From assembly GCA_038206915.1 (NCBI GenBank), contig JBBRAI010000002.1, positions 5,510 through 69,509 on the forward strand: a stretch of 64,000 nucleotides of DNA. The letters are read 5' to 3'. How positions within the stretch are numbered: position 1 is the stretch's first letter; the number at the start of each line of letters is the position of its first letter. The notes beneath the pieces were generated by a model. It made no database searches. It had not been told where the DNA came from and saw only the letters and a list, made by a program, of their open reading frames with translations. A program made the translations under genes and the position numbers. Below are positions 31,148-64,000 of the stretch, piece by piece. The stretch comes from Burkholderiales bacterium (GTDB lineage Bacteria; Pseudomonadota; Gammaproteobacteria; Burkholderiales; SG8-39).

Positions 31148-31189
31148 TCGGTCTGCGATTCCGGCTGCCATCAATGGCGAATTGGATTC

Positions 31190-31388
31190 CCCGCAAATGC
31201 CGTCAGACCCGCATCCTCTGAACCTGCAGTCCAGAGTGGTCGCATTCCGGCCGCCGTAGGTACATCCACGATGGGACGCGCACAAAAGCGGCGCTTTGGT
31301 CCGCGACCTCAGCACATATATTGGTTCAAGGAATATATGGCCTTAACGAGCATCGCAGGGAAACTGTTTGCGGTCTGGCCCGCTAAGG
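31190..31388 (-). ncRNA. ssrS: probable 6S RNA
   Basis: It lies immediately downstream of zapA, the conserved proteobacterial synteny. It is about 190 nt with no ORF. It has E. coli 6S-like segments (GCGGGCCAG near the 5' end, CCTTGAACCAA, CTACGGCGGC near the 3' end). The 5' gccagaccgc can pair with the 3' gcgggtctgacggc as a closing stem. The ends are approximate. Confidence 0.55.
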
Positions 31389-36126: not shown

Positions 36127-36199
36127 GTGTGCGCTCCGCACTGGCGCCTGCGGCGTCCGGGCGGCCGGCTACCCCGCTAATTTATCCGAAGGAGTCACC

Positions 36200-38420: not shown

Positions 38421-38447
38421 AACTACCTCCTTTGGTTGAACAGCGGG

Positions 38448-39326: not shown

Positions 39327-39381
39327 ATTCTCAATTCCTCCGATGACGTTTGTCCAAAAGCGTACAGTGGCGCGTTCCGGC

Positions 39382-40284: not shown

Positions 40285-40288
40285 CGGT

Positions 40289-41224: not shown

Positions 41225-41330
41225 ATTTGGATCGAGCTAAGTCGGACAAAGTGCGGGCGTCAACCATTACAGAGCGCGCGCTGGATATCGACCGATGCGA
41301 GGTGGCCAGTTTAGACCTTATTCACCCATA

Positions 41331-43262: not shown

Positions 43263-43331
43263 GGGTTCTTGCTCCTGGACTAACGCCGATTTGGCGGTGT
43301 GGCTCTTCTACGTGCGGTTCGTAATGTGGCG

Positions 43332-44252: not shown

Positions 44253-44280
44253 GGTGCGCTCCTTTGTTACAGCTAAAACG

Positions 44281-47551: not shown

Positions 47552-47555
47552 GGAA

Positions 47556-50900: not shown

Positions 50901-50947
50901 TAACATATCAGTAATATATGAGCTGGCGGTTTGATCCAGATCAAAGC
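50901..50947 (-). promoter_or_regulatory. 47-nt conserved regulatory block upstream of fusion copy 2 (paralogous to 54481-54527)
   Basis: On the minus strand it reads gcTTTGATCTGGATCAAAccgccagCTCATATATTACTGATATgtta. By my hand alignment 39 of 47 positions are identical to the block upstream of the corrinoid-protein operon. Confidence 0.6.
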
Positions 50948-50994: not shown

Positions 50995-51759
50995 TCAGGC
51001 AGGCTGCCGGGTGAATGGCTTCAGCGCGTGTTTCGCGATCGTCTGCTTGAGTTCGGGCTTGATATGCTTCTCGCTGTAGCCGTTGAATACGTGTCCGAGC
51101 AGGCCGCGGTCCAGATCGCTGGTGCCCATGATCCAGTCGGCGATGGGAAACGTCAGGTTCATGTTGATGTCCATCATGATGCCCTGATTGTGATGCGCCG
51201 TATGGTGGCGGCGGATGGTGTTGACGAACGGCATATTTTGCACGAACCAGTTCTCATGCACGTGGCAGCAGTAGTGGAAGGTTTCGTAAATCAGATACTG
51301 GCCAACCATCGTAACCAGCAGGATGTAGCCCGCATTAGGGTTGATCAGCCAGCCGAGCAGCAGCGCGAATGGCATGCCCAGGCCGATAAACGTGAATAAC
51401 GCGCGCCACGGGAAGAAAATAATGCGGAACTCCCGGGTCGAATCCACGGTCATCTCGCCGTCGGTGAAGTACTGGTGGTGTTGGCGGGTGTGGCGGTCGT
51501 AGATGGCGCGCAGCGCCCACACGTCGCGCAGCCGGTGCATGACGTATTTGTGTATCCACCATTCGAAAATATTCGAGAAACAGAATACCGGCACCACCAG
51601 CAGCCATTCCCATCCTGAATCGTGCAGGCGCGATATGCACCAGGCGATCGTCGCGATGCCGGTGGAGTACATCACGCCGATGTGAACCAAACCGTTGTAA
51701 AGAGGATGGATCTGTGCAGTGTATTCTTCGCGGAACTTGCGCTGTCGCTCTGTCATCAT
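50995..51759 (-). CDS. fatty acid hydroxylase / sterol desaturase superfamily membrane di-iron oxygenase
   Basis: The 254-aa protein has TM segments and three His boxes: HKYVMH, HTRQHH and HHTAHH. A GGAGGA RBS precedes it. Confidence 0.8.
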   Translation of the reverse strand: MMTERQRKFREEYTAQIHPLYNGLVHIGVMYSTGIATIAWCISRLHDSGWEWLLVVPVFCFSNIFEWWIHKYVMHRLRDVWALRAIYDRHTRQHHQYFTDGEMTVDSTREFRIIFFPWRALFTFIGLGMPFALLLGWLINPNAGYILLVTMVGQYLIYETFHYCCHVHENWFVQNMPFVNTIRRHHTAHHNQGIMMDINMNLTFPIADWIMGTSDLDRGLLGHVFNGYSEKHIKPELKQTIAKHALKPFTRQPA

Positions 51760-52053: not shown

Positions 52054-52749
52054 TCAGAAGTCGATGGTCACCGTCCCCCGCGTAAACTTGGCCACGGCGT
52101 CCAGCAGTTTGTCCATCGCTTTGGCCGCGGCGGACTCGTTGCCCGAGCCGATACTACGCGAGAGGTTGGCATGCAGCTTGGCGGTGAGTGGCAAGTCCGC
52201 CGCCTGCTTGTAATGAATGTACCAGAAGCGCCGCGACAGAGAGTGCATCAGGCCCATAGCGCCGGAGGCAAATTCGTTGCGCGCCGCGATCACCGAAAGT
52301 TCATTGAATTCGCGATCCACCCGCATGAACGTAACATCGTTGTTGGTCTTGGCGCTCGCTTCGAATTGGCGCGCGAGCGCGAGGAAGCGTTCGCGCTCCT
52401 CGGGCGTCGCGCGCCGTGCCGCGCTCCTCGCCACCAGGCGCTCTACTTCGCGCCGCACCTCAAGCAGCCTCAACTGGCTCTTCACATTGATCTCGGAAAC
52501 GATGATTCCCCGCCGCGGCAGTATATTGACCAGGCGCTCGCGTGCGAGACGTTGCAGTGCCTCGCGTATGGGCGTGCGCCCGATCCCGAGACGTTGCGAC
52601 AGGGCGGTCTCGGACACGGTGCTGCCCGGTGGCAACTTCAGCGTGACGATCATTTCCTCAAGAATGCCGTAGGCGCGTTCGGTCAGCGAAATATCCGCTT
52701 CGGATGCGACTTTTTCCGGCTTTCTGACGGTGGTTTTTTGTGGTTTCAC
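52054..52749 (-). CDS. GntR family transcriptional regulator (FadR/FCD subfamily)
   Basis: The N-terminal winged HTH reads ETALSQRLGIGRTPIREALQRLARERLV, and the C-terminal domain is all-helical. The GTG start overlaps the PanB-like stop (GTGA). Confidence 0.85.
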   Translation of the reverse strand: MKPQKTTVRKPEKVASEADISLTERAYGILEEMIVTLKLPPGSTVSETALSQRLGIGRTPIREALQRLARERLVNILPRRGIIVSEINVKSQLRLLEVRREVERLVARSAARRATPEERERFLALARQFEASAKTNNDVTFMRVDREFNELSVIAARNEFASGAMGLMHSLSRRFWYIHYKQAADLPLTAKLHANLSRSIGSGNESAAAKAMDKLLDAVAKFTRGTVTIDF

Positions 52750-53627
52750 TGGTGCTTGCGTTTTTCGACGAGGTTGAGAAATTTTTCGTACTCCTTCTCG
52801 TCCACGCCATAGCTGTGATCGTCGTCCGGGAAGGTGCCGGCTTTTACGTCGGCGATGTAGGCCTTGATGCCGTTCACCGCGACCTCGGTCAGATTGGCAT
52901 AGCGCTTGGTGAACTTCGGCTTGAAGTCGGTGAATACGCCGAGCAGATCATGGCAAAGCAGGATCTGGCCATCGGTACCGGCGCCAGCGCCTATGCCTAT
53001 GGTCGGGATTTCGAGCTGCTTCGATATCACCGCGGCGATCTTCGCCGGCACCGCTTCAAATTCGAGCATGAAGCAGCCCGCATCCTGAATCGCGAGCGCG
53101 TCGCCGAGTATCTTCATCGCCGCTTCCGCGCTGCGTCCCTGGATGCGGAAGCCGCCGAACATAGCGATGGTGTGCGGCGTGAGGCCGATGTGCGAGGCGG
53201 TCGGAATACCGGCATCTACCAGCGCTTTGAGTATGTGCGCCTGAGATTTTCCGCCCTGCGGCTTTACCGCGTCGCTGCCGGCATCCTGCATGAAGCGCGT
53301 TGCGTTGAGCAGGGCGCGATCGATCGTGTTATAGCTCTGGTAGGGCATGCAGCCCAGTACGAAGGTGGCGGGCGCGCCACGGCGGATGGCCGCCGCGTGC
53401 ATCACCATCATGTCCATGGTGGCGGGAATCGTGCTCGAATGTCCATGCGCGATCATCGCCAGGCTGTCCCCGACCACGGCAACGTCGACGCCCGCGGTTT
53501 CGGCCCATTTGGCCGCCGTATAATCGGGCACCGACATGTAGACCATCTTCTCACCGCTGTTCTTGGATTCGCGTATTTCCTGGATGGTCCGCTTTTTGCG
53601 TTCCGTGCCTGGGCTTGCCTGGGCCAA
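52746..53627 (-). CDS. 3-methyl-2-oxobutanoate hydroxymethyltransferase (PanB) family protein, copy 2
   Basis: ORF 52746..53717 trimmed to the TTG at 53627, which has an AAGGAG RBS 6 nt upstream. PanB motifs are present: VGDSLAM, RRGAP, VKPQGG, SHIGLTPH, LEFEAVP and GIGAGAGTDGQILL. Confidence 0.8.
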   Translation of the reverse strand: MAQASPGTERKKRTIQEIRESKNSGEKMVYMSVPDYTAAKWAETAGVDVAVVGDSLAMIAHGHSSTIPATMDMMVMHAAAIRRGAPATFVLGCMPYQSYNTIDRALLNATRFMQDAGSDAVKPQGGKSQAHILKALVDAGIPTASHIGLTPHTIAMFGGFRIQGRSAEAAMKILGDALAIQDAGCFMLEFEAVPAKIAAVISKQLEIPTIGIGAGAGTDGQILLCHDLLGVFTDFKPKFTKRYANLTEVAVNGIKAYIADVKAGTFPDDDHSYGVDEKEYEKFLNLVEKRKHQ

Positions 53628-53647: not shown

Positions 53648-53672
53648 ACTGATATGCGTGCAGTATATCAGT
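53648..53672. promoter_or_regulatory. inverted repeat ACTGATAT-N9-ATATCAGT in the PanB2/Fe-S-protein divergent region
   Basis: Read directly. The arms are 8 bp and perfect. The repeat lies 21 nt upstream of the PanB2 start. Confidence 0.55.
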
Positions 53673-53762: not shown

Positions 53763-54476
53763 ATGAACTTAAGCGATGTAGAGGCGAGTCTGGCGCAGGC
53801 CGGACTCAGTTCGCGCGGTGCATTTCATCCGGTCGCGCGCGATGGCGTACCGCTTTTCGCTCCGGGCGTCGCGGCGCGCACAGTGGTGCTTGCCGGCAAT
53901 GCGGGGCCGCGCATGTGGCGCCGCTTCGCCGGCGTCCGTGCCGCGCGCGGGATCTCCCTGGACGCATGGTCGGAAACCGTCCTGAACGGTCTCGCTGAGC
54001 AACTCGGTGCGGCGGCCGCGTACCCGTTCAAGCGTCCCTACCTCCCGTTCCAGCGCTGGGCCAGGCGCGCGCAAGCCTGCCATGGGTCGCCCTTGGGGCT
54101 GCTGATCCACCCGGACTACGGCGTGTGGCACGGCTATCGCGGGGCGCTGTTGTTCGCGCAGGAACTGAAGTTGCCCGAACCCGATCGCCGCCCGAGTCCC
54201 TGCGCAAGCTGCGCGGAGCGACCCTGCATGTCGGCATGTCCGGTCGGCGCATTTTCCGACATGCGCTACGACGTTCCCGCCTGCGCGCGCTACCTGGCGG
54301 CTACGCCGGAACCTGCGTGCATGGAGATCGGCTGCCTCGCGCGCCATGCCTGTCCGGTCGGGCGCGACTACCGCTATGCGCCGGAGCAGGCGCGGTTCCA
54401 CATGCTGTCGTTCCGGCGCAACCATCAGCCCGGCGCAGCTGCGGCACAAAACCAGGGGGCGAAGCGCCCTGTGTAA
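53763..54476 (+). CDS. 4Fe-4S cluster protein resembling the C-terminal part of epoxyqueuosine reductase (QueG) / reductive-dehalogenase-type enzymes
   Basis: ORF 53658..54476 trimmed to MNLSDVE. The segment GLLIHPDYGVWHGYRGALLF...PCASCAERPCMSACPVGAF matches the QueG-like pattern and has a C-x2-C-x..-C-x3-C-P ferredoxin motif. A further Cys cluster follows (CARYL...CMEIGCLARHACPVG). Confidence 0.5.
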   Translation: MNLSDVEASLAQAGLSSRGAFHPVARDGVPLFAPGVAARTVVLAGNAGPRMWRRFAGVRAARGISLDAWSETVLNGLAEQLGAAAAYPFKRPYLPFQRWARRAQACHGSPLGLLIHPDYGVWHGYRGALLFAQELKLPEPDRRPSPCASCAERPCMSACPVGAFSDMRYDVPACARYLAATPEPACMEIGCLARHACPVGRDYRYAPEQARFHMLSFRRNHQPGAAAAQNQGAKRPV

Positions 54477-54480
54477 CGCC

Positions 54481-54527
54481 GGTTTGATTCAGATCAAATC
54501 GGCCGCTCATATATTACTGATATATTA
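54481..54527 (+). promoter_or_regulatory. 47-nt conserved regulatory block upstream of the corrinoid-protein operon
   Basis: It reads ggTTTGATTCAGATCAAAtcggccgCTCATATATTACTGATATatta. The palindrome is TTTGAT-N4-ATCAAA, followed by an ACTGATAT half-site. It ends 50 nt before the ATG at 54577. Confidence 0.6.
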
Positions 54528-54576: not shown

Positions 54577-55212
54577 ATGGCCGACATACTCGAGACAATC
54601 AAGGAGATGTGCATCAAGGGCAAGCGCGTGGAAACGCTGGCGGAGGTGAAGCGCGCGCTTGCCGACGGCATCGACGCCAAGACGGTGATGACGCAGAGTC
54701 TGATACCGGCGATGGCGGTGGTGGGCGAAAAGTATTCCTCGGGCGAGTTCTTTTTGCCGCAGATGATGCTCGGTGCGCGCGCGATGAGCGAAACGATGGC
54801 ATTCCTCAAGCCCCACTTGGTGCAGGGAAGTTACGAGAAGAAGGGCAAGGCGGTGGTCGGGACGGCGCAGGGCGACTTTCACGATATCGGCAAGAACATC
54901 GTCAAGATCATGCTCGAGGGCGGCGGCTATGAAGTTGTCGACCTCGGCGTGGATGTGAGTCCGCAGGCGTTTGTCGACGCGGTGCGGAAAGAGGCACCGC
55001 GCTTTGTCCTGGTCAGCGCGCTGATCACGCTCACCATGGACAGCATGCGCAAAACCGTCAAGGCGCTGGAAGGCGCCGGGGTGCGCGGCCAGGTCGTGGT
55101 GGGGATCGGCGGCGCGCCGGTGACGCAGAAGTTCGCCGACGAAATCGGCGCCGACTTCTACAGTCAGGACGCGTACCAGTGCGTCGAGAAGTGCAACCAG
55201 TTGCTGCATTGA
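54577..55212 (+). CDS. corrinoid (cobalamin-binding) protein, MtaC/MtbC/MtvC-like
   Basis: The 211-aa protein starts MADILETIKEMCIKG, with a GGGAG RBS. It has a helical cap and a B12 Rossmann domain with GDFHDIGKN, SALITLT and IGGAP. Confidence 0.9.
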   Translation: MADILETIKEMCIKGKRVETLAEVKRALADGIDAKTVMTQSLIPAMAVVGEKYSSGEFFLPQMMLGARAMSETMAFLKPHLVQGSYEKKGKAVVGTAQGDFHDIGKNIVKIMLEGGGYEVVDLGVDVSPQAFVDAVRKEAPRFVLVSALITLTMDSMRKTVKALEGAGVRGQVVVGIGGAPVTQKFADEIGADFYSQDAYQCVEKCNQLLH

Positions 55213-55235
55213 GCGGCGCCCTAGGAGCGAGCGAA

Positions 55236-56312
55236 ATGACACCCAAAGAAAGAGTGATGACGGCATTGCGCCGCGGCCAGCCCGACCAGGTGCCGTGGGT
55301 CGAAAACGAAGTCGAGGAGATGTTGCAGATCCAGATCATGGGCGGGCGCACCGACTACACGCCGGGCGAACTGTGCCGCGCCCTGGGCATGGACGGCTTC
55401 GGCTATCACTTTCCTACTGGCGGCGCGGGTTCGGCCAGCCAGGCGCTGCAGACCTCCAAGTCGATCAAGGAGGCCTTCTACTTCCCGAAAAAGATCACTT
55501 TCGACTTCGTGCCACCGTGGATCGCCGATATGGGCGTGGAGCCGAATGGGCGCACCTTCGTCAAAAAGGGTCTGCTGGTCGATCGCGATTCGCTCAAGCT
55601 GTTCGACGAGTTCCTGCCCGATCCGAACCATCCGGCGCGCTACGAGCAGATCGCGAAGTGGATCGAGCAGTACCGCGAGGACTACGCCGTGTACGCGCGA
55701 ATCCGCCTGGGTACCGCGAGCACCATCGAAAGCATGGGGCTGGACGTGTTCTCGCTCATGCTCTACGACGATCCGGATCTGGTGAAGGAGATCCATCGGC
55801 GCTTTTCGGAATGGACAGTGAAGGTGCTCGAGAACCTGAACAAGCTCGACCTCGATTTCTACTGGGCCAACGACGACCACGCCGACACCAAGATGCCCTG
55901 GGTCAACATGGAGATGTACGAGGAGTTTTTCTTCCCTTACCAGAAGATGGTCGCCGACGCGATGAAGAAGCCCTGGGCGTTCCATAGCGACGGCAACCTG
56001 TTTCCGATACTCCCCGGGCTGGTGAAGCTCGGCATGAACGCGATCCACCCGATTCAGCCGGCGGCGATGGATATCGCCAAGATGAAGGCGGACTACGGCT
56101 CCAAGGTCTGCCTGATCGGCAACATCGATCTGGATTACACCCTGACGCTGGGTACGCCCGAAGAGGTCGACAAGGAGGTCAAGGAGCGCATCGCGGTCGC
56201 CGGCAAGGGCGGCGGCTATATCATCAGCAGCGCCAACAGCCTTACCGACTATTGCAAGATCGACAACGTCTGGGCCATGTCCAAGGCGCTGAAGAAATAC
56301 GGCAAGTACTGA
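55236..56312 (+). CDS. uroporphyrinogen decarboxylase (URO-D) family methyltransferase (MtaA/MtvB-like)
   Basis: The 358-aa protein starts MTPKERVMTALRRGQPDQVPWVE. A URO-D-type TIM barrel pattern runs through ...GGGYIISSANSL. It lies immediately after the corrinoid protein. Confidence 0.75.
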   Translation: MTPKERVMTALRRGQPDQVPWVENEVEEMLQIQIMGGRTDYTPGELCRALGMDGFGYHFPTGGAGSASQALQTSKSIKEAFYFPKKITFDFVPPWIADMGVEPNGRTFVKKGLLVDRDSLKLFDEFLPDPNHPARYEQIAKWIEQYREDYAVYARIRLGTASTIESMGLDVFSLMLYDDPDLVKEIHRRFSEWTVKVLENLNKLDLDFYWANDDHADTKMPWVNMEMYEEFFFPYQKMVADAMKKPWAFHSDGNLFPILPGLVKLGMNAIHPIQPAAMDIAKMKADYGSKVCLIGNIDLDYTLTLGTPEEVDKEVKERIAVAGKGGGYIISSANSLTDYCKIDNVWAMSKALKKYGKY

Positions 56313-57109
56313 TGCTGATCGTCGCCGAACGTATTAATGCCTCGCGCAAAGCGATCCGCGCCGCGCTGGAAAAGCTCGACGCCGACGCGATAGTGAATGA
56401 GGTGCGCATACAGGACGCTGCCGGGGCGAATTACATCGACCTGAACGGCGGCACCTTCCCCGGACGCGAAACCGAATTGCTTTGCTGGCTGGTGGACATC
56501 GCGCAGCAGGCGACGCAGCTGCCGCTGTGTCTGGACAGCCCGGACCCGGCGGCGCTGGAAGCGGCGCTGAAGCGGCTGAAAGGGCCGCGGCCGATGATCA
56601 ATTCGATCAACCTCGAACCGGAGCGCTTCGAGCGCACGCTGCCGCTGGCGCGTGAGCATGGCGCCAAGCTGATCGCGCTGGCGCAGGGCGAGGACGTGCC
56701 CGCGGCGAGCGCGGCGGAGAAGGCCGAGCTTGCCGGCCGCCTGATCGAGCAGCTGGTGCGCGCCGGAATGCCGCTCGATGACATCTACGTCGATCCGCTG
56801 GTATTTCCGGTGGGGACCGATTCGGCATCGGGGCTGGCCACGGTAACCGCAATGCGCGAGATCATGGCGCGCTATCCCGGGGTGCACACCATCTGCGGCC
56901 TGACAAACGTATCGCACGGCCTGCCGGCACGCAAACTGATCAATCGCACGTTCCTCGCCGGTGCGATTGCCAACGGTATGGACGCGGCCATCATCGATCC
57001 GACCGATACCCAGCTCATGGCGACGATGTTCGCAGCAGAAGCGGTTTTCGGGCGCGACGAATACTGCGTCAACCTGATCGAAGCGTTCCAGGCGGGCAAA
57101 CTGGGCTGA
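56312..57109 (+). CDS. pterin-binding methyltransferase (methyl-corrinoid:tetrahydrofolate methyltransferase; MeTr/CmuB/MtvA-like)
   Basis: The 265-aa protein starts MLIVAERINASRK with a TGATG overlap. It has YIDLNGG and the conserved ICGLTNVSHGLPARKLINRTFLAGAIANGMDAAIIDP, a dihydropteroate-synthase-like fold signature. Confidence 0.8.
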   Translation: MLIVAERINASRKAIRAALEKLDADAIVNEVRIQDAAGANYIDLNGGTFPGRETELLCWLVDIAQQATQLPLCLDSPDPAALEAALKRLKGPRPMINSINLEPERFERTLPLAREHGAKLIALAQGEDVPAASAAEKAELAGRLIEQLVRAGMPLDDIYVDPLVFPVGTDSASGLATVTAMREIMARYPGVHTICGLTNVSHGLPARKLINRTFLAGAIANGMDAAIIDPTDTQLMATMFAAEAVFGRDEYCVNLIEAFQAGKLG

Positions 57110-57155
57110 GCCGATCCGGCAGTCGCGTCGTTTCCCAAGTACCGCACGATGAACC

Positions 57156-59051
57156 ATGCGCAATCCTGACTCCCATTCGTCGAAGGTTGGCGTCACCTTC
57201 CTGCCGGATTCGCGTCGCGTCGAGGTCGCCGCGGGTGAGCGCCTGCTGTTTGGTGCATGGAAAGTGGGCGTCGGCATCAAGTCCGTTTGCGGCGGTCGCG
57301 GCAAGTGCGCCAGCTGCCTCGTGATTGTGGAAAGCGCCGCCGCCGATGCGCTTTCGCCGGTCAGCGCGGAAGAGCAGGCGCTGCTGCCGCGCGTCGAAGC
57401 CGGGCCAACCTACCGTCTCGCCTGCATGACCGAAGTGCGCGGCGAAGTATGCGTCTCGGTCCCGCCGGAGAGCCAGGCGCTGAAAAGTCCACCGCGAAAA
57501 CCCTACACCGTGACCAGCGTTGCGCTGGCTCCCGCAGTCAAGCGCGTCGCATTCGACGTGGAAGATGCCTACGCGGAGCCCCTGCGGCCGCTGTCCGAGC
57601 GCATCGAGACAGCGCTGTGGGGCTCGCGCGGCGGCAAACTGCCCGTTGCCGTTCTGGCAGAGTTGTCGCGCGAACCTGATTTCGACTCCAGCGCGCGACT
57701 CAGCGCGACGCTCGAGGGCAAGCGTTTGGTCCAGCTGTGCTGCGGCGAACCCGGCCCGATCTACGGCCTGGCCGTGGACATCGGCACCACCTCAATAGTC
57801 GTGTTTCTATGTGACTTGACGCGCGGCGATATCGTCGGCGTGCGCACCTCGGGCAACCCCCAGGCGGCCTTCGGCGAGGACGTCATTTCGCGCATGGCGC
57901 ATGTCCAGGAGGACGTGTCGAATCTTGGCGTGCTGCACAAGCTGCTGATCGACGACATCAACCGCATGGTCGATGACGCGGCGCGCGAAGCGGGCGTGGC
58001 GCTCAAGGACATCGTCGATGCGGTGGTGGTGGGCAACCCGACCATGCAGCACGTGCTGCTCGGCATCAATCCGGTGCCGCTCGGGCGCGGGCCGTACGTT
58101 CCGGTGATGTCCGCGGGCGTGGAAGTCGAGGCGCGCAGCCTCGGACTGACCATCGTGCCGGGGGCGCCGGTGTTCGTGCTGCCCATGCCCGCCGGCTATA
58201 TCGGCGGCGACACGCTATCGGCCGTGCTCACGCGCGGACCGGAGTTCTACCGCGGCAATAATCTGCTGGTGGATATCGGCACCAACGGCGAAGTGGTGCT
58301 CGCCAAGGACGGCGTACTCACTGCCACGTCCTGCGCTACGGGACCGGTATACGAGGGCGCGCACATCGCCTGCGGCGTGCGCGCGGCGCCCGGGGCGATC
58401 GAGCGCGTCTGGATTGAAGCCGGTGGCGCGATCCGCTGGGCTGCGATACCGCCGGATGGCGAGCGCGACCGGCGTCCGGTCGGGCTGTGCGGCTCGGGCG
58501 TGATCTCGACTGTGACCGCGCTGGTCGGCGCCGGGCTGGTGGGAATCGACGGTGCGTTCGCGCAGCTCGGCACGCATCCGCGGTTGCGCCGCAGCGCGAT
58601 CAACGGACAGATGGAGGTGGTACTGGTCCCGGCGATGGGCAGCAGGACCGGACGCGATATCGTGTTCACGCAACAGGACGTGCGCAGCGTGCAGTTGGGC
58701 AAGGCTGCGCTGCGCGCCGGCATCGAAATCCTGCTGCGCGAGCAGGATGTGAAGGAGCTCGACCACATTTTCCTGGCCGGAACTTTCGGCAACCATCTTG
58801 AACCGCGCGACATCGTCGCGATCGGCCTGGTCCCGCCGGTGCCGGTGGAGCGCATCGAATCGATTGGCAACGCGGCCGGCGACGGCGCGCGCATGGCCTT
58901 GTTTAACCGGCGCGACCGGCGCCGCGCGCAGCGGCTCGCGCAGACCATGCGCGTGGTCGAACTGTCGAACCGCGCCGATTTTCAGGACATGTTCGTCGCC
59001 TGCACCGAACTCTCGGACGCGCCCGCGCCGACGCTGGAACAGGAGGACTAG
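57156..59051 (+). CDS. RACo-type reductive activator of corrinoid enzymes (2Fe-2S ferredoxin domain + ASKHA ATPase, DUF4445-like)
   Basis: The 631-aa protein has an N-terminal plant-type ferredoxin domain (CGGRGKCASC...LAC). The ASKHA phosphate motifs are GLAVDIGTTSIV and LLVDIGTNGEVVL. The C-terminal part contains LCGSG and QQDVRSVQLGKAALRAG. Confidence 0.85.
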   Translation: MRNPDSHSSKVGVTFLPDSRRVEVAAGERLLFGAWKVGVGIKSVCGGRGKCASCLVIVESAAADALSPVSAEEQALLPRVEAGPTYRLACMTEVRGEVCVSVPPESQALKSPPRKPYTVTSVALAPAVKRVAFDVEDAYAEPLRPLSERIETALWGSRGGKLPVAVLAELSREPDFDSSARLSATLEGKRLVQLCCGEPGPIYGLAVDIGTTSIVVFLCDLTRGDIVGVRTSGNPQAAFGEDVISRMAHVQEDVSNLGVLHKLLIDDINRMVDDAAREAGVALKDIVDAVVVGNPTMQHVLLGINPVPLGRGPYVPVMSAGVEVEARSLGLTIVPGAPVFVLPMPAGYIGGDTLSAVLTRGPEFYRGNNLLVDIGTNGEVVLAKDGVLTATSCATGPVYEGAHIACGVRAAPGAIERVWIEAGGAIRWAAIPPDGERDRRPVGLCGSGVISTVTALVGAGLVGIDGAFAQLGTHPRLRRSAINGQMEVVLVPAMGSRTGRDIVFTQQDVRSVQLGKAALRAGIEILLREQDVKELDHIFLAGTFGNHLEPRDIVAIGLVPPVPVERIESIGNAAGDGARMALFNRRDRRRAQRLAQTMRVVELSNRADFQDMFVACTELSDAPAPTLEQED

Positions 59052-59054
59052 CCC

Positions 59055-60521
59055 ATGCTCGCTCTCAGACGCTGGTCGGTGCGGCACGCGGGACTGGTCG
59101 AGCGCACGTATGGTTGGCTCAGGTCGCTGTTGCGCGCCTGTGATCCGTTGATTCGGCGACTGGGCTACGCGCGCGTCGAAAAAGCAGTGCTGCCGATCGA
59201 GCGCCGGCTGAAGGGGCTCATGTTCGACTGTCGCATGTGCGGCGTGTGCCTGCTCTCGCTCAATGGCATGTCCTGCCCGATGAACTGCCCCAAGTCGGTG
59301 CGCAACGGGCCCTGCGGCGGCGTGCGTCCGGACGGCGGCTGCGAAGTCGATCCGCAGATGCAGTGCGTCTGGGTGGAAGGATGGCGCGGCACGCAGAAAA
59401 TGTCGGTCGGCTCGATTTCCGAATTGCCCAACGCGCCGGCAAATGCGCGTTTTGCCGGAAGTTCGAGTTGGTTACGTCTGGCGCGCGGCGAGCACGAGCC
59501 GTCTCCCATTAGCGGCGCGCCGACGACGTCCTCCGGCAGTCACCTGGAGAGTCTGCTCGCAAGCGGCAGCTTCGCGGTTACCGCGGAATTTTCGCCGCCG
59601 GATTCGGCCGATCCCGGCGAGGTCTTCGCGCAGCTGGAGTATTTCCGCGGCCACGTCGACGCCATCAATGTTACCGACGGCAGCGGGGCGAATTGCCACA
59701 TGTCCAGTCTCGGCGTCTCGGCGCTTTTGCTGCAGGCCGGCTGCGAACCGGTGATGCAAATCACCTGCCGCGACCGCAACCGCATCGCCATCCAGGGCGA
59801 CATCCTCGGCGCCGCCGCGCTGGGCATACGCAACCTGCTCTGTCTCACCGGCGACAGCACGCTGGTGGGAGACCATCCGGACGCCAAGCCCGTGTGCGAC
59901 TTGGATAGCATGTCGCTGCTGCAGACCGCTCGCATCATGCGCGACGAGAAGCGCTTTCTTTCCGGGCGCAAGCTGAGCGCCGTTCCCTTCATGTTCCTCG
60001 GCGGCGCCGACAATCCGTTCGCGCCGCCGTTCGACATGCGTCCGATGCGGCTCACGCGCAAGATAGCGGCCGGCGCGCAGTTCGTGCAGACGCAGTATTG
60101 CTTCGATCTGGATCTGCTCGGAGCCTATATGGACCGGGTGCGCGATGAAGGGCTGCATGAGCGCTGCCATATCATTATCGGCGTCGGACCGATCGCCTCG
60201 GCGAAGACGGCGCGCTGGCTGCGCAGCAAGGTGCCCGGCGTGCATATTCCAGACGCAGTGGTGGCGCGCCTGGAGGGCGCGGCCGACGCGCGTGCCGAGG
60301 GCAGGAAGATCTGCGTCGAAATGATCCAGGCGATAAGGCAAATTCCAGGCATCGCCGGGGTGCACATCATGGCGCCGCGTCAGGATCAATTCATTCCGGA
60401 ACTGGTGCGCGCTTCGGGCGTGCTGGCGGGGCGGCCGCCGCCTTACGCCGGCGCTGCGCAGCCGCGTCCCTTGCCGGCCATGGCGGGTGGATCTGGCGGC
60501 GATGGGCGCCCGGCTTCTTAA
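59055..60521 (+). CDS. MetV-MetF fusion: Cys-rich MTHFR-associated (MetV-like) domain + methylenetetrahydrofolate reductase domain
   Basis: The 488-aa protein has an N-terminal CRMCGVCLLSLNGMSCPMNCPKSVRNGPCGG motif. The MetF barrel follows (FAVTAEFSPPD, INVTDGSGA, QITCRDRN, LCLTGD). Confidence 0.8.
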   Translation: MLALRRWSVRHAGLVERTYGWLRSLLRACDPLIRRLGYARVEKAVLPIERRLKGLMFDCRMCGVCLLSLNGMSCPMNCPKSVRNGPCGGVRPDGGCEVDPQMQCVWVEGWRGTQKMSVGSISELPNAPANARFAGSSSWLRLARGEHEPSPISGAPTTSSGSHLESLLASGSFAVTAEFSPPDSADPGEVFAQLEYFRGHVDAINVTDGSGANCHMSSLGVSALLLQAGCEPVMQITCRDRNRIAIQGDILGAAALGIRNLLCLTGDSTLVGDHPDAKPVCDLDSMSLLQTARIMRDEKRFLSGRKLSAVPFMFLGGADNPFAPPFDMRPMRLTRKIAAGAQFVQTQYCFDLDLLGAYMDRVRDEGLHERCHIIIGVGPIASAKTARWLRSKVPGVHIPDAVVARLEGAADARAEGRKICVEMIQAIRQIPGIAGVHIMAPRQDQFIPELVRASGVLAGRPPPYAGAAQPRPLPAMAGGSGGDGRPAS

Positions 60522-60533
60522 GGAGGAGTTCTC

Positions 60534-61301
60534 ATGAATATTTCAACATGGCGCGCCGACCCGGTAGCGACGAACGCCCGGCCGACCGTCATCATCGCCT
60601 GCCGCGTAATGCAAGAGCATCTGCAGCAGCTCCTGCCCGCTACCACGGCCGTGACCTATCTTGAAATCACGCTGCACAACACGCCGAAGAAACTTGCCGC
60701 CGCGCTGCAGCACGAAATCGATCTGGTCGAGCAGCCGAGCAATATTCTGGTCGGCTACGGACTGTGCGGCAACGGCCTGCTCGGCGTGAAGTCCGGGCCG
60801 CATACCCTGATCATTCCGCGCACGCACGACTGCGTCGCCATCTTCCTGGGTTCGCAACAGCGCTACGTACAGCGCTTCTTCGCGAATCCGAACACCTACT
60901 ACCTGACCCGCGGCTGGCTGGAGGCGAAGGACGAACCGCTGCAGGACTACCTCGACTACGTGCGCGACTATGACGAGGAGACCGCCGACTATCTGGTCGA
61001 AATGAAATACCGCCACTATCGCAAGCTGTGCATGGTCGGATTTTCGCAGGAGGAACTGGAGGAATGCCGGCCGATGGCCATGCGCGTGGCGGAGTTCTGC
61101 GGCAAGCGCTGGAACATGGAATACGAGGAGATCGTGGGCTCGACCTCCATGCTCCAAAATCTGCTCAAGCTGCCAGCGCAGCTCGAATCGGGCAACAACG
61201 ACGAATTCGTCGTGGTCCGGCCGGGCGGGGAGATCGAGGTCGATATGTTCCTGCGCGACGGGGAGTCGGCGCCGGCACAAACTGCGGCCCGGGATGGCTA
61301 G
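60534..61301 (+). CDS. DUF1638 domain-containing protein
   Basis: The 255-aa protein has ILVGYGLCGNGLLG...LIIPRTHDCVAIFLGSQQRY...YYLTRGWLE, the pattern I associate with DUF1638. That family is usually found next to corrinoid methyltransferase genes. Confidence 0.7.
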   Translation: MNISTWRADPVATNARPTVIIACRVMQEHLQQLLPATTAVTYLEITLHNTPKKLAAALQHEIDLVEQPSNILVGYGLCGNGLLGVKSGPHTLIIPRTHDCVAIFLGSQQRYVQRFFANPNTYYLTRGWLEAKDEPLQDYLDYVRDYDEETADYLVEMKYRHYRKLCMVGFSQEELEECRPMAMRVAEFCGKRWNMEYEEIVGSTSMLQNLLKLPAQLESGNNDEFVVVRPGGEIEVDMFLRDGESAPAQTAARDG

Positions 61302-61321: not shown

Positions 61322-61648
61322 CTAGACGATAGCGTCTACCCCGCGTGCGGCGCGGATGACGCGCATGATTTCGACGCAGTTGCCGCGGGTGCGGTAGAAG
61401 ATCACGTAGCGCTGGAACAGCAGGCTGCGGATGCCCTCCTGCAGCTCCTGGCGCGGCGGCCCCATCTCCGGATGCAGCGTCAGCAGCTGGCAAACCTGTT
61501 CGAATTGGTTGACGAAGCTCAGTGCCGCCGCAAGATGCTCCGCATTGGTCGTGCCGAAGCGGACGCTGGGCATTGCGATCGTCTCCCAAATGCCGTTGAG
61601 GTCGGCGCAAGCCTGAAACGTAAACTGCATCCGGCTGGAAACTGTCAT
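61322..61648 (-). CDS. type II toxin-antitoxin system RelE/ParE family toxin (no intact cognate antitoxin seen)
   Basis: The 108-aa protein reads ...FTFQACADLNGIWETI...HPEMGPPRQELQEGIRSLLFQRYVIFYRTRGNCVEIMRVIRAARGVD, a ParE-like pattern. MQFTF is an alternative start. Confidence 0.7.
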   Translation of the reverse strand: MTVSSRMQFTFQACADLNGIWETIAMPSVRFGTTNAEHLAAALSFVNQFEQVCQLLTLHPEMGPPRQELQEGIRSLLFQRYVIFYRTRGNCVEIMRVIRAARGVDAIV

Positions 61649-61744
61649 TCGGCGCGCTCGGATGCTTTGCCGCGAAGGTTACGAAATACCTCGAGACTGA
61701 GGCTACCCGTTTGCTTCGCAACGGTGTAAGATCGCGCTACTCGT

Positions 61745-61950
61745 TCAAGGTGTCCGCCGGTGCTTCCCGCCGGCGGGTGAAACGGGAAACAGGTACCGCG
61801 CGAAGTCTGCGCCCAAGCCTGTGCTGCCCCCGCAACGGTATGTGAGCGCGGGTCTGTCTCGATGCCACTGCAGGCACGCGCCTGCGGGAAGGCGACAGAT
61901 CCAATCCCACGAGCCCGGAGACCGGCCTTTCGCGACAGGTGGAAACACTG
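61745..61950 (+). promoter_or_regulatory. cobalamin (B12) riboswitch
   Basis: Conserved elements were read directly: AACGGGAA, GCTGCCCCCGCAACGGTA, GCCACTG...GGGAAGGC, and the B12 box GAGCCCGGAGACCGGCC (61911-61927). A GC hairpin plus T-rich tract and an RBS-proximal hairpin follow, before the ATG at 62050. The ends are approximate. Confidence 0.85.
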
Positions 61951-62049
61951 CGGGGACGCGGTGCGCCGGTAGTGGTTCCGTACTCCCCCGCGTTTCCTTT
62001 GTGGTCTTGTTTGTGCAGCCTGCGGGGACGCCGGCTGCGGGGGAATTTC

Positions 62050-64000
62050 ATGAAATCCAAGCTAGTCATTGCCGCCATCGGCTTCGCCCTGGCGGCGCAG
62101 GCGTTTGCCCAGGAGGATGCCGTGGTGGTCACGGGCACGCGCTTTCCGGAGAAGCGGCTCGAGCATCCGATCGGCGTAACTGTGATCACGCGCCAACAGA
62201 TTGCGGACAGCGCCGCGGCGAGCCTGCCGGAACTGCTGTCGCGCTATGCCGGCGTCAATACGCGCAACAATACGGGCAGTCCCGACGTTGCCGTGGATCT
62301 ACGCGGTTTCGGCGCGAGCGGCGACCAGAACACGCTGGTGCTGCTTGACGGCCAGCGCCTGAACGACATCGAGCTTGTGCCGGTGCGCTGGTCGGCGATT
62401 CCGCTCGATGCGATCGAGCGCGTAGAAATTCAGCGCGGCGGCGGCGCCGTGCTGTATGGAGGCGGCGCCAGCGGCGGCACCATCAACATCATCACGCGCT
62501 CGCCGATTGCAGGCGCGAAAAGTGCGACTGTCGCCGCCAGCCGCGGCTCGTATGGCACCGACGAGCTGCAAGCAGCGTTCAATCTCGCTGGAACCAATAC
62601 CGGTTTTTCGCTTTCGGCGAACCAGCACAACTCGGATGGTTACCGGGCCAACAACCGGCTGGAGCAGGGCAGCGTACTTGGCGATCTGCGCTGGACCGGA
62701 GACCGTGCCGGGCTGGTGTTCAAATTCGGACTGGACAACCAGAACTTGCGCCTGCCCGGCGCGCGCACTGCGGCCCAGTTCCAGAGCGATCCGCGCGGCA
62801 CCGCGACGCCCAACGACTACAGCGGGCGCGATGGCCAGCAGGCAACGCTCTCCGGACGCTATGCATTCGACGCGGCCGAGTTCGCCGTCGATCTTTCCTA
62901 CCGCGACACCAAGCGCACGGGATTCTTCGATGATTACAGTGGCTTCGGTTTCAGCACCTATACCGATACCCACGCCAAAGTCTGGTCGCTTACGCCGCGC
63001 GTGAAGCTGCCGTATCACATGCTAGGGCGCGACAATGTGCTCATATTCGGCATGGACGCGGACAGCTGGGACTACCGCGGCCTGCGCGCGGCGCGCTTCG
63101 AACTGCTCGGCACGCCGCAGGTCGATCTGGCCGCCACGCAGAAGGACCGCGCTTACTATGCGCAGAACGACACCGCGCTCGGCGCGGCCACCAAGCTCAC
63201 GCTCGGTGCGCGGCTGCAGCAAGTGGATATATCCGCCGATGACCGCGCCAATCCGGCGGGCTACGCCAGCGCTTCCCAGAACCGCAGCCCGCGCGCCTGG
63301 GAAATCGCTTTGCGGCACAACTTCACATCCGCGCTCGCGCTCTACGGCAAACTCGGCGCGAGCTATCGCGTCGCCACCGTGGACGAGATCTATAACCAGT
63401 TCGGCGGTCCGGTGTTCGATTCCGTGGTCACGCCGCTGGAACCGCAGACCTCGCGCGACCATGAAATCGGCGCGGAATACAAATCGGCCGCCGGAAAACT
63501 CCGCGCCAGCTGGTACCGCATGGATCTGCGTAATGAAATCCATTTCAACGCGCTTACCTTCACCAACATGAACCTGTCGCCGACGCAGCGCGAGGGATTC
63601 GAACTGGAGGGCAGCCGCAAACTGAGCGAGCGCGTCGACCTGTTCGCCAGCTACACCCATGCGCGCGCGGTGTTCCGCGAAGGTGTGTACGTGGACGCGC
63701 TGACCGGCGCCAGCATCGACTTGGGCGGAAAGAATGTGCCGCTGGTGCCGCACAACTCCGCCAGACTCGGCCTGAACTGGCAGCCGGCGGAGAAGACCCA
63801 ACTCAGCACCGTGCTGGCTTACGTCGGCAAACAGTACTACGACAACGACCAGGCCAATACCTTTCCCGGGCAGATGCCCTCGTTCGTGACTGCCGACGCC
63901 AAACTGAGCCGCATCATCGGATCCTGGACCCTGAGTGCCGCGGCGAACAATCTCACCGACAAGAAGTATTACACCTACGCGATACGCAACGGGGCCGGCA
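62050..64000 (+). CDS. TonB-dependent receptor (BtuB-like; 3' end runs off the right edge)
   Basis: Not in the ORF track because there is no stop in the window. Manual translation gives MKSKLVIAAIGFALAAQAFAQEDAVVVTGTRFPE... (signal peptide plus TonB box), a plug domain (IERVEIQRGGGAVLYGGGASGGTINIITR) and beta-barrel repeats. It is preceded by the B12 riboswitch. Confidence 0.85.
   Translation, partial: MKSKLVIAAIGFALAAQAFAQEDAVVVTGTRFPEKRLEHPIGVTVITRQQIADSAAASLPELLSRYAGVNTRNNTGSPDVAVDLRGFGASGDQNTLVLLDGQRLNDIELVPVRWSAIPLDAIERVEIQRGGGAVLYGGGASGGTINIITRSPIAGAKSATVAASRGSYGTDELQAAFNLAGTNTGFSLSANQHNSDGYRANNRLEQGSVLGDLRWTGDRAGLVFKFGLDNQNLRLPGARTAAQFQSDPRGTATPNDYSGRDGQQATLSGRYAFDAAEFAVDLSYRDTKRTGFFDDYSGFGFSTYTDTHAKVWSLTPRVKLPYHMLGRDNVLIFGMDADSWDYRGLRAARFELLGTPQVDLAATQKDRAYYAQNDTALGAATKLTLGARLQQVDISADDRANPAGYASASQNRSPRAWEIALRHNFTSALALYGKLGASYRVATVDEIYNQFGGPVFDSVVTPLEPQTSRDHEIGAEYKSAAGKLRASWYRMDLRNEIHFNALTFTNMNLSPTQREGFELEGSRKLSERVDLFASYTHARAVFREGVYVDALTGASIDLGGKNVPLVPHNSARLGLNWQPAEKTQLSTVLAYVGKQYYDNDQANTFPGQMPSFVTADAKLSRIIGSWTLSAAANNLTDKKYYTYAIRNGAG

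Follow-up and report, generated by a model that had tools for sequence, protein, structure and literature searches.

The operon at positions 54577-61301 of the 64-kb stretch of DNA analysed here (the window), which comes from an uncultured betaproteobacterium, raises the question of which way its corrinoid-dependent enzymes move methyl groups, and from what kind of compound. ORF and domain analysis of this region gave six forward-strand ORFs, in the order corrinoid protein (CP), UroD-superfamily methyltransferase (MT I), pterin-binding methyltransferase (MT II), RACo, MetV-MetF and DUF1638 (Table 1). The gaps between them are 23, -1, 46, 3 and 12 nt from 5' to 3'; the MT I/MT II junction, TGATG, is a 1-nt overlap. 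The predicted start codons of all six genes fit the lengths of their homologues. An earlier note on this DNA had given the same coordinates, gene order and five gaps, and its gene content and tight coupling hold, every assignment having Pfam or NCBIfam support. Its count of seven genes becomes six, because MetV and MetF are fused in one ORF. This fusion is also present in L017, L022 and L026, whereas the two genes are separate in Azoarcus and Paracoccus.

Table 1. Positions in the window of the operon and of the surrounding features.
Feature	Position	Strand	Remarks
TRAP transporter genes	32207-35102	-	operator at 35205 separates them from PhyH 1/PanB 1
PhyH dioxygenase 1 and PanB paralogue 1	35293-37063	+	divergent from TRAP genes
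Gene train: LivKHMGF-type ABC transporter, PhyH3, MT fusion 1, two CUT1-type permeases, PhyH2, solute-binding protein	37110-48734	-	operator at 48816
UroD-like/corrinoid fusion, 643 aa	41331-43262	-	52% identical to 636-aa fusion
UroD-like MT I-corrinoid domain fusion, 636 aa	48915-50825	-	Pfam; exact 636-aa match P0391
Operator and FNR box, own motifs of 636-aa fusion	50903-50919 and 50931-50944		
FA_hydroxylase-family membrane di-iron protein	50995-51759	-	operator TGATATATCA at 51804
GntR/FCD regulator	52054-52749	-	Pfam GntR and FCD; operon with PanB paralogue 2; candidate regulon repressor
PanB paralogue 2	52746-53627	-	panB equivalog 283.8 bits (cutoff 207.6); likely TTG start at 53627
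Operator-like CTGATATGCGTGCAGTATATCAG at PanB paralogue 2	53649-53671		conserved in relatives
Accessory 4Fe-4S protein, 237 aa	53763-54476	+	faint QueG/MMACHC similarity (E 4e-4 and 0.019)
Perfect FNR/FixK/Dnr-type box TTGATTCAGATCAA	54484-54497	+	placed like class II activator site
Palindromic operator ATATATTACTGATATAT	54509-54526	+	overlaps -10-like TATATT (54521-54526); candidate GntR/FCD site
CP, corrinoid protein, 211 aa	54577-55212	+	Pfam B12-binding_2 and B12-binding, E 1e-16 and 2e-24
MT I, UroD-superfamily methyltransferase, 358 aa	55236-56312	+	Pfam URO-D 79.6 bits (cutoff 23.9)
MT II, pterin-binding methyl-THF:corrinoid methyltransferase, 265 aa	56312-57109	+	Pterin_bind E 8e-20; PRK07535 284.7 bits (cutoff 259)
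RACo/RamA-type ATP-dependent reductive activase, 631 aa	57156-59051	+	Fer2, Raco_middle and RACo_C_ter, E 1e-49 and 3e-73
MetV-MetF methylene-THF reductase, 488 aa	59055-60521	+	Pfam DUF5981 (MetV, Cys-rich) and MTHFR (MetF), single ORF
DUF1638 protein, 255 aa	60534-61301	+	Pfam E 4e-36
Cobalamin riboswitch	61731-61944	+	Rfam RF00174, 93.8 bits; precedes TonB-dependent receptor
TonB-dependent receptor	61939-window end	+	plug and beta-barrel domains

An identical six-gene order was found in eight other loci (L001, L002, L004, L006, L008, L017, L022 and L026), which comprise Burkholderiales and Betaproteobacteria MAGs, one Hyphomicrobiaceae MAG and two metagenome contigs. Because the order recurs in eight independent loci, the arrangement is not due to chance. 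The six genes probably form one transcription unit, a judgement made from the sequence and jointly with the functional explanation given below. Division into separate units, with internal promoters in places such as the 46-nt gap before RACo, has little probability. The RACo start shows no obvious Shine-Dalgarno sequence, a 9/12 promoter-like site lies at 56967-56994, and the gene order is different in L011, L012 and L018. However, when the operon was scanned against shuffled sequence, neither promoter-like matches (2 vs 1.8 expected) nor terminator-like ones (4 vs 7.2) rose above chance. In addition, no gap exceeds 46 nt, one junction overlaps, the eight other loci keep the order, and the sole conserved non-coding block is upstream of CP.

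The QueG-like gene upstream, which the earlier note took as a possible first gene, is accessory, lies outside the conserved operon and is lacking in most relatives. It directly precedes the CP operon only in the window, L025 and L026, and in these three the conserved FNR-box/operator promoter intervenes between it and the CP gene. L001, L002, L004 and L008 have no such gene at this position, and in L027 and L028 it lies elsewhere. The protein has 3390 homologues; its QueG match covers only the ferredoxin part of QueG.

The domain identities bear out the general reading of the earlier note, a three-component system for corrinoid-based methyl transfer, which has an ATP-dependent activase and a MetVF-type methylene-THF reductase of its own. 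CP consists of a B12-binding cap and a Rossmann domain, and its DxHxxG motif reads DFHDIG. The top NCBIfam model of CP is corrin_MtgC_2, at 194.7 bits and under the cutoff of 370. RACo has an N-terminal 2Fe-2S domain and matches the AcsV model at E 2e-100.

The AF2 model of MT I (pLDDT 91.4) has MtaA (4ay7) as its top Foldseek match, with an E value of 5e-17 and a TM score of 0.66-0.71. Thiol-methylating MtaA uses a His-Cys-Cys zinc site. This site was not found in MT I in an alignment of 32 orthologues: the H-x-C of MtaA aligns with the invariant H250-S251-D252, the third ligand position is A/N, and a single Cys is invariant, with no conserved Cys pair. The lack of the MtaA zinc site fits a position of MT I on the methyl-donor side. 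MT I has 795 homologues (64-95% identity), and no characterised relative was found among its matches. In the PDB, its sequence is closest to CdmB (E 5e-8), in a match confined to the C-terminal 135 residues. MT I represents a separate UroD-type orthogroup, only weakly similar, via CdmB, to the O-demethylase MT I clade.

The promoter region combines two conserved elements. Exact FNR boxes occur twice in the window, vs 0.01 expected, and 11 of the 12 found in 477 kb of loci precede CP or MT-fusion genes. The exact box is upstream of the CP gene in L001, L002, L004, L006, L008, L017, L025 and L026, and upstream of the orthologue of the 636-aa fusion in L001, L002 and L017; none was found in L011, L012, L014, L018, L021 and L022. 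Its centre is about 30 nt from the -10 element in the window. The operator motif has six matches at 3 or fewer mismatches in the window, vs 0.02 expected; it is kept in relatives and lies at six promoters of a ~27-kb island around the operon. A GntR/FCD gene adjoins the CP operon in eight loci (L001, L002, L004, L006, L012, L018, L022 and L026), and in L013 it adjoins an MT I orthologue without the remaining system. Transcription would start ~45 nt upstream of the CP gene. Judged by consensus and position of the sites, an FNR-family regulator, responding to low O2 or an N-oxide signal, would switch the promoter on, and the neighbouring GntR/FCD protein would hold it off until substrate is present. 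The regulation is not uniform: the gene train that contains MT fusion 1 has no FNR box.

Besides the operon, the island carries two UroD-corrinoid fusions, three PhyH dioxygenases, two PanB paralogues, three transporters and the GntR regulator. PanB paralogue 2 is syntenic and 84-94% identical in relatives, and the FA_hydroxylase gene is syntenic in six loci (L001, L002, L004, L006, L012 and L026). The binding protein of the TRAP system is similar to 2zzv, which binds lactate (E 2e-73). Organic-anion uptake genes also adjoin MT I orthologues elsewhere: TRAP in L005, L009 and L022, TctC in L007 and L020, Liv-type ABC in L013 and L021, and MFS in L016. The PhyH neighbour, regarded as an oddity in the earlier note, is a conserved partner, and PhyH genes are co-operonic with the methyl-transfer system in L011, L012 and L014. 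Predicted B12 uptake functions, the riboswitch and the TonB-dependent receptor, adjoin the B12-dependent operon. Genes that would oxidise C1 units further (FolD, PurU or Fhs) are missing from the window, which has the two PanB paralogues instead.

The operon probably stands at the centre of a methyl-transfer system that depends on cobalamin and serves demethylation. Folate would most likely receive methyl groups removed from an imported compound; the demethylating direction is plausible. The methyl group of this compound, probably a small organic anion, would be transferred by MT I to the Co(I) of CP, and MT II would pass it from CH3-Co(III) to tetrahydrofolate. The fused MetV-MetF would then oxidise CH3-THF to CH2-THF, which would feed the C1 pool. 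Accidentally oxidised Co(II) would be re-reduced by RACo with ATP and its 2Fe-2S centre, probably with the help of DUF1638. The two MT I-corrinoid fusions nearby probably act on other substrates and rely on the same MT II, RACo and MetVF. Since a homocysteine methyltransferase gene lies beside the operon in relatives, the core may also serve methionine synthesis, as in Ruegeria.

A mainly anabolic role, in which the operon would encode a split methionine synthase, dependent on cobalamin, along with a dedicated MTHFR, seems unlikely to us. MetVF would here reduce CH2-THF, MT II would methylate CP, and a separate homocysteine methyltransferase would make methionine; RACo and DUF1638 would reactivate the cofactor, and MT I would merely add an alternative methyl source. 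A stand-alone S-methyl_trans gene (PF02574) does lie just past DUF1638/ParE in L002, L017 and L026, and one lies near TRAP/PhyH/PanB in L028. The split MetH of Phaeobacter and the dual-use MtgCDE of Ruegeria consist of the same parts. However, tblastn found no S-methyl_trans gene in the 64-kb window, that of the relatives has its own promoter without operator or FNR box, and neither a SAM nor a B12 riboswitch precedes the operon in the window or in relatives. The operator is common to the operon, the three transporters and the GntR/FCD regulator, as is typical of substrate-induced catabolism, and MT I, which lies within the operon, keeps at least 64% identity. This co-regulation of importers, not exporters, together with the replaced zinc ligands of MT I, also makes it highly improbable that MT I serves the acceptor side, as MtaA/MtbA do. 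MetVF would in that case make CH3-THF from CH2-THF for methylation of a small molecule, biosynthetic or detoxifying, at low oxygen. In favour of this reading, MtaA is the closest fold, MetVF of acetogens normally works in the reductive direction, and CH2-THF could be supplied or consumed by the PanB paralogues. A further point for it is that methyl transfer by corrinoids is reversible (EmtAB, PMC11912376). The literature searched, however, gave no precedent for this arrangement.

It is very unlikely that the operon encodes a dehalogenating methyltransferase system for halomethane (chloromethane or dichloromethane) of the Cdm/Cmu kind. Both island fusions have the CmuA-like domain order, and the cmu genes of methylotrophs are accompanied by a MetF paralogue. 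The chloromethane methyltransferase CdmB is the top PDB sequence match of MT I, and the Cdm system combines a corrinoid protein, MT I and MT II (PMC13222342). However, the CdmB match is weak and partial, and the fusions give no match to the MtaA/CmuA model TIGR01463 at E <=1e-3. A gas requires no TRAP, TctC or ABC importer, whereas genes for such importers are found beside MT I orthologues in many lineages and carry the same operator in the window; GntR/FCD effectors are mostly carboxylates.

This kind of system is already known in aerobic and denitrifying Proteobacteria. The earlier note had considered an anaerobe-style set unusual in this setting, a claim of novelty that largely falls with the homology and literature survey, because the core is annotated in Azoarcus sp. 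KH32C and Paracoccus methylovorus and genetic studies of it exist for aerobic Ruegeria and Phaeobacter. Many uncultured Burkholderiales share this exact operon. What is new is the MT I orthogroup, its substrate, and the FNR/GntR wiring with apparent low-oxygen control. In aerobic Ruegeria, MtgC/MtgD, RamA, DUF1638 and MetF2 carry out oxidative demethylation (PMC12478193). Split MetH requires the RamA-like and DUF1638 genes (PMC5764234), which ties DUF1638 genetically to B12 reactivation; RamA-like, DUF1638, split MetH/MtgCD and MetF2 proteins have been characterised in aerobic Phaeobacter and Ruegeria (PMC5764234, PMC12478193). The MtgBCD(E) systems of Ruegeria pomeroyi, Phaeobacter inhibens and S. 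meliloti (PMC12478193, PMC5764234) share with the window a stand-alone MtgC-like CP, a pterin-binding CH3-THF methyltransferase, a RamA/RACo-type activase, DUF1638 and a dedicated MetF paralogue. Their hosts are O2-respiring Proteobacteria, and the linked homocysteine methyltransferase gene is found in relatives of the window but not within its 64 kb. Their MT I, however, is an MttB-superfamily protein (PF06253, glycine betaine) and not of the UroD type, whereas the window has one compact operon with fused MetV-MetF and FNR/GntR-type wiring.

The three-component O-demethylases MtvABC, OdmABCD, VdmABCD and MtoABCD of acetogens, Desulfitobacterium and Methermicoccus likewise combine a UroD-superfamily MT I, CP, pterin-binding MT II and ATP-dependent activase, and pass methyl groups to THF. 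They occur in strict anaerobes and feed the Wood-Ljungdahl pathway, whereas the window adds MetVF and DUF1638 and has O2-dependent PhyH and FA-hydroxylase genes as neighbours. CdmBCA of Acetobacterium dehalogenans (PMC13222342) and CmuAB of aerobic methylotrophs resemble the window in the features discussed above, but similarity is very low and organic-anion importers are co-regulated here. EmtAB, the estrogen methyltransferase of denitrifying Denitratisoma (PMC11912376), is also a cobalamin-dependent methyltransferase of a betaproteobacterium living without O2; however, EmtA groups with MtmB, not UroD, and those genomes show no MT II or THF branch. Type 1 mlp gene clusters (PMC10418091) differ in having no THF methyltransferase, in MtaA/MtbA-like Mlps and in being confined to obligate anaerobes. 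Azoarcus sp. KH32C (pAZKH, NC_020548.1) and Paracoccus methylovorus (p1, NZ_CP070369.1) carry CP, DUF1638, MetV, MetF, pterin MT and ASKHA/RACo in one gene string, but in a different order, with separate MetV and MetF, without a UroD-type MT I, and in a glycine betaine or MttB-family context. The former is a cultured denitrifying betaproteobacterium and the latter an aerobic methylotroph. Their corrinoid protein is ~45% identical to the corrinoid domain of MT fusion 2 of the window, which served as the query.

The operon at 54577-61301 (+) consists of six genes, in the order corrinoid protein (CP), UroD-family methyltransferase (MT I), pterin-binding methyl-THF methyltransferase (MT II), RACo/RamA-type activase (RACo), MetV-MetF and DUF1638. 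ORF ends and gaps agree exactly with the figures of the earlier note. Its count of seven genes was lowered by one because MetV and MetF share a single 488-aa ORF: the Cys-rich MetV domain (DUF5981, PF12225) occupies residues 38-117 and the MetF domain (MTHFR, PF02219) residues 164-454. Good Shine-Dalgarno sequences are located upstream of CP, MT I, MetV-MetF and DUF1638. The observation as such was confirmed, and the interpretation attached to it was partly supported.

CP is composed of the B12-binding cap and the Rossmann domain (PF02607 and PF02310), and its DxHxxG motif reads DFHDIG. Among the NCBIfam models, CP scored best with corrin_MtgC_2, but its 194.7 bits are below the model's cutoff of 370. 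MT II contains Pterin_bind and exceeds the PRK07535 cutoff; it is predicted to be a pterin-binding enzyme forming CH3-THF. The RACo protein carries Fer2, Raco_middle and RACo_C_ter, the domain set of an ATP-dependent reductive activase.

Features of the operon, its promoter and the surrounding island (positions in the window)
Feature	Position	Strand	Remarks	Basis
6S RNA gene	31184-31364	-	61.8 bits
TRAP transporter	32207-35102	-
Palindrome TGATATATCA, exact copies	35205; 48816; 51804
PhyH1-PanB1	35293-37063	+
PhyH-family genes	35293-36126; 38448-39326; 43332-44252	+; -; -
PanB genes	36200-37063; 52746-53627	+; -
Gene train	50825-37110	-	MT fusion 2, LivKHMGF, PhyH3, MT fusion 1, two permeases, PhyH2, binding protein
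MT fusion 1	41331-43262	-
MT fusion 2	48915-50825	-
Palindrome TGATATATCA, variants	50903-50919; 53649-53671; 54509-54525
FNR box, second copy	50931-50944		upstream of MT fusion 2
FA_hydroxylase-family gene	50995-51759	-	membrane di-iron protein
PanB2-GntR	53627-52054	-
Fe-S gene	53763-54476	+
FNR-type box, perfect	54484-54497		TTGAT-N4-ATCAA, CP upstream spacer
8+8 palindrome ATATATTACTGATATAT	54509-54525		11 nt past FNR box, CP upstream spacer
TATATT hexamer	54521-54526		-10-like, overlaps ATATATTACTGATATAT
CP	54577-55212	+		Pfam and NCBIfam
MT I	55236-56312	+	23-nt gap after CP	Pfam and NCBIfam
MT II	56312-57109	+	1-nt overlap with MT I (A of TGA stop = A of ATG)	Pfam and NCBIfam
RACo	57156-59051	+	46-nt gap after MT II	Pfam and NCBIfam
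MetV-MetF	59055-60521	+	3-nt gap after RACo	Pfam and NCBIfam
DUF1638	60534-61301	+	12-nt gap after MetV-MetF	Pfam and NCBIfam
ParE toxin gene	61322-61648	-	82 nt to riboswitch
Cobalamin riboswitch	61731-61944	+	93.8 bits
TonB-dependent receptor	61939-64000	+

MT I scored 79.6 bits with the Pfam URO-D model, and its AlphaFold (AF2) model (pLDDT 91.4) has a UroD-type barrel. In a Foldseek search MtaA was the best match (E 5e-17, TM 0.66-0.71); uroporphyrinogen decarboxylases and MetE ranked next. The best solved sequence relative is the chloromethane methyltransferase CdmB, which matches the last 135 residues of MT I at E 5e-8, and the second is MtaA (E 5e-3); MtvB, OdmB, VdmB and MtoB were compared only through their relative CdmB. 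The zinc site of MtaA (His-x-Cys ... Cys) is not kept in MT I. The H-x-C segment was aligned to the invariant H250-S251-D252 and the cysteine of PGCG to S-A-N, and C47 is the only invariant cysteine among 32 MT I orthologues. The loss of the zinc ligands speaks against a thiol-methylating role of MT I and in favour of a donor-side enzyme.

The two fusion proteins of the window share 52% identity; with MT I, the identity is only 24%, over 117 residues. In both, a divergent UroD-like domain is joined to a corrinoid-binding domain, in the order seen in CmuA. The URO-D match is weak (E 1e-4 to 1e-5), and neither fusion matched the MtaA/CmuA model TIGR01463 at E 1e-3 or better, the NCBIfam matches being to corrinoid models only. 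Their family has 1624 unnamed homologues, from Betaproteobacteria and Desulfobacterota-type MAGs.

By family assignment, the operon shares the corrinoid protein, the UroD-type MT I, the pterin-binding MT II and the RACo/RamA-type activase with the three-component O-demethylases of the Mtv/Odm/Vdm/Mto type. With the MtgBCDE/RamA/DUF1638/MetF2 system it shares the RamA-like activase together with DUF1638, both found within the operon by Pfam, and a dedicated MetF paralogue, here an MTHFR domain fused to MetV. An MtgB-like MttB-superfamily domain (PF06253) was found in none of the scanned island genes, and MT I is of the UroD type instead. The type 1 mlp clusters (PMC10418091), which are without a THF methyltransferase and occur in anaerobes only, were ruled out as the matching family.

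Cultured relatives were found via their corrinoid proteins by tblastn of plasmids with MT fusion 2 as the query. In Azoarcus sp. KH32C, genes for CP, DUF1638, MetV, MetF, the pterin methyltransferase and an ASKHA protein adjoin glycine betaine transport genes and purU; in Paracoccus methylovorus, an MttB-family gene is followed by CP, DUF1638, MetV, MetF, MT II and ASKHA. In aerobic Phaeobacter, the split MetH requires RamA-like and DUF1638 genes, which co-occur across Alphaproteobacteria (Price et al., PMC5764234). Ruegeria, also aerobic, uses MtgC and MtgD for glycine betaine demethylation and methionine synthesis, with induction of RamA, DUF1638 and MetF2; in other bacteria these genes are frequently co-located or operonic (Mausz et al., PMC12478193). 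The view that only acetogens and organohalide respirers typically have such complete sets fails against these modules and studies. The architecture and chemistry of the operon were already established; the new elements are the regulation and an MT I orthogroup of which no member has been characterised.

At a threshold of E 0.001, MT I has 795 homologues, and the best 120 of them are 64-95% identical. In the representative library they make up one 50%-identity cluster, with 219 further clusters at E below 1e-30. The orthogroup ranges over Proteobacteria, Desulfobacterota-like lineages, Chloroflexota and Moorella. Every contig with a close relative comes from a MAG (Burkholderiales, Betaproteobacteria, Casimicrobiaceae and Rhodospirillales), and no MT I above 30% identity was found in plasmids of cultured bacteria. 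An exact look-up of the MT I product itself gave no record. Among the 28 fetched related loci (L001-L028), L001, L002, L004, L006, L008, L017, L022 (Hyphomicrobiaceae) and L026 retain the six-gene order, which is rearranged in L011, L012 and L018. A PhyH3 orthologue immediately follows DUF1638 in L011, L012 and L014. PanB2, GntR, FA_hydroxylase and the fusion gene accompany the operon in relatives. MT I orthologues without the remaining system adjoin TRAP, TctC, Liv-type or MFS importers.

A flow of four steps can be proposed by analogy with characterised systems. [quoted passage not shown] The donor-to-THF, catabolic direction of this flow is favoured because importers and the GntR/FCD regulator seem to be co-regulated with the operon, because MT I is without the zinc site, and because of the Ruegeria MetF2 precedent. 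It is also favoured by the lack of a SAM or B12 riboswitch upstream of the operon; none was found here or in six relatives, and riboswitch control was rejected on this ground. The main rival is that the operon encodes an anabolic split methionine synthase. This would agree with the stand-alone homocysteine methyltransferase gene that adjoins the operon in L002, L017 and L026 and is also found in L028. However, the gene is absent from the window, where an MtgE-like enzyme (PF02574) gave no tblastn match within the 64 kb. For relatives having this gene, a dual role is likely by analogy with Ruegeria.

With regard to the substrate, three solute-binding proteins are encoded in the island (34071-35102, 37110-38420 and 47556-48734). 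The TRAP proteins fall in the lactate/2-oxo-acid subclass, and the Liv-type and CUT1-type proteins are uninformative. In a Rhodospirillales MAG (L013, 10062-12061), the MT I orthologue adjoins genes for a DmpF/DmpG-type acetaldehyde dehydrogenase and 4-hydroxy-2-oxovalerate aldolase, which hints at a link to the meta-cleavage pathways of aromatic rings. Substrate inference from the binding proteins was dropped, the clues being split between a small aliphatic and an aromatic acid, and no substrate is claimed because the binding-protein and neighbourhood clues disagree. It should be mentioned that a class-III-like Zn alcohol dehydrogenase and a MetX-like alpha/beta hydrolase form a pair adjoining methyltransferase genes in two unrelated loci (L005, 7786-9926; L017, 407-2588). 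A role of this pair in formaldehyde detoxification is not supported: both proteins are under the cutoffs of the respective models, the dehydrogenase with 283-303 bits against 544 for the glutathione-dependent model, and the hydrolase resembles MetX.

The interval 52.7-62.0 kb was scanned for promoters of the sigma-70 type and for intrinsic terminators, with shuffled sequence as the comparison. The counts did not exceed those of the shuffle (promoters, 2 vs 1.8; terminators, 4 vs 7.2), so that signals of internal promoters and terminators were not above chance, in agreement with the predicted single operon. When the upstream regions of the relatives were aligned, the 100-nt spacer upstream of CP was the sole conserved non-coding block. 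It contains the perfect FNR-type box, the palindrome ATATATTACTGATATAT and the TATATT hexamer, the box centre being approximately 30 nt from the hexamer. Class II FNR promoters have the centre of the box some 41.5 nt ahead of the transcription start, and the spacing in the putative CP promoter would fit this geometry. Two exact FNR boxes are present in the window against 0.01 expected; both have an operator copy 11 nt away and a corrinoid-related gene downstream. Twelve exact boxes were found across the 28 fetched loci (477 kb), eight of them directly upstream of CP (L001, L002, L004, L006, L008, L017, L025 and L026) and three upstream of the fusion-gene orthologue (L001, L002 and L017). In L011, L012, L014 and L022, a TTGAC-type -35 element replaces the box.

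The Fe-S gene had been called QueG-like and proposed as a possible first gene of the operon. This is not sustained: the gene is missing from L001, L002, L004 and L008, and wherever it adjoins CP (the window, L025 and L026, the only loci having it at this position) the FNR box stands between the two. The start of the operon was therefore placed at the CP promoter, and read-through from the Fe-S gene is possible. The gene occupies other positions in L027 and L028. It matches QueG in the ferredoxin segment only (E 4e-4) and the B12-processing protein MMACHC/CblC faintly (E 0.019). It belongs to a widespread 4Fe-4S family of 3390 homologues without a Pfam family, which adjoins B12-dependent methyltransferase genes in some relatives, not in all.

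Gene calling with Pfam and NCBIfam scans placed the operon at the end of an island of roughly 27 kb. The palindrome TGATATATCA occurs in three exact copies against 0.00 expected, with three variants; all six sites fall in promoter regions of the island, and the placement is the same in relatives. Judging from these positions, the six sites look like one GntR/FCD regulon with the palindrome as the candidate operator, to which the regulator would bind. The FA_hydroxylase gene has its own operator copy and is syntenic with the operon in six relatives. Both PanB genes exceed the NCBIfam panB equivalog cutoff and are 84-94% identical in relatives; one is partnered with a PhyH gene and the other with the GntR regulator, in a catabolic-looking regulon. 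Nothing relevant was found in the literature on PanB, PhyH and corrinoid combinations. The three PhyH-family proteins are Fe/2OG dioxygenases. PhyH1 is approximately 45% identical to PDB 6zyk ('monooxygenase'), for which a full-text literature search returned only noise, and PhyH1-like genes flank MT I orthologues in L005, L009 and L014.

In place of the apparent conflict between corrinoid and O2 chemistry, the PhyH and FA_hydroxylase genes are seen as conserved partners of the system. One genome clade has FNR boxes on the CP operon and on one of the fusion genes, and these promoter elements suggest preferential use of the system at low oxygen; in another clade, -35 elements of the ordinary type stand there, and a PhyH gene is co-transcribed. 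It is conceivable, but in our estimation improbable, that the operon serves as the low-oxygen arm in a GntR-controlled regulon of about 27 kb, in which corrinoid and oxidative routes load C1 units onto tetrahydrofolate with FNR switching. The corrinoid route would then consist of transfer by three UroD-type MT I enzymes, possibly from non-aromatic small carboxylates. In the oxidative route, PhyH and FA-hydroxylase enzymes would hydroxylate methyl groups using O2, and the PanB paralogues, acting in reverse, would release the hydroxymethyl group as CH2-THF. This reading turns on the relation between the PhyH and corrinoid steps (sequential or alternative) and on the PanB roles. If true, the PhyH/FA-hydroxylase and PanB route would amount to a form of oxidative C- or O-demethylation that has not been described before.

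Earlier work on corrinoid demethylation with a UroD-type MT I dealt with acetogens, organohalide respirers and one methanogen; the present finding adds uncultured Burkholderiales from groundwater and lakes. Their version has the RamA/DUF1638/MetF core of aerobic marine Alphaproteobacteria, where the function was recently shown. A known scheme is thereby completed at a point where it had a gap, both in taxonomy and in enzymes, and nothing is overturned. Since no member of the widespread MT I family is characterised, one substrate assignment would annotate all of it. The conserved FNR box and operator provide testable handles on the timing of use, namely oxygen level and inducer.

Downstream of the operon, an orphan ParE gene is followed by the cobalamin riboswitch and, directly after it, the TonB-dependent receptor gene. 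This suggests B12 import beside a B12-dependent operon; six related loci do not have the riboswitch in this position. The interval between ParE and the riboswitch has no space for an antitoxin gene. In L017, L026 and L028, a gene of 73-85 aa is paired with ParE and the homocysteine methyltransferase gene adjoins the pair, which suggests a rearrangement at the ParE site in the window. At the other side of the island, the 6S RNA gene is located within a conserved PriA-HemE-EVE-ZapA neighbourhood, which is also present in L028.
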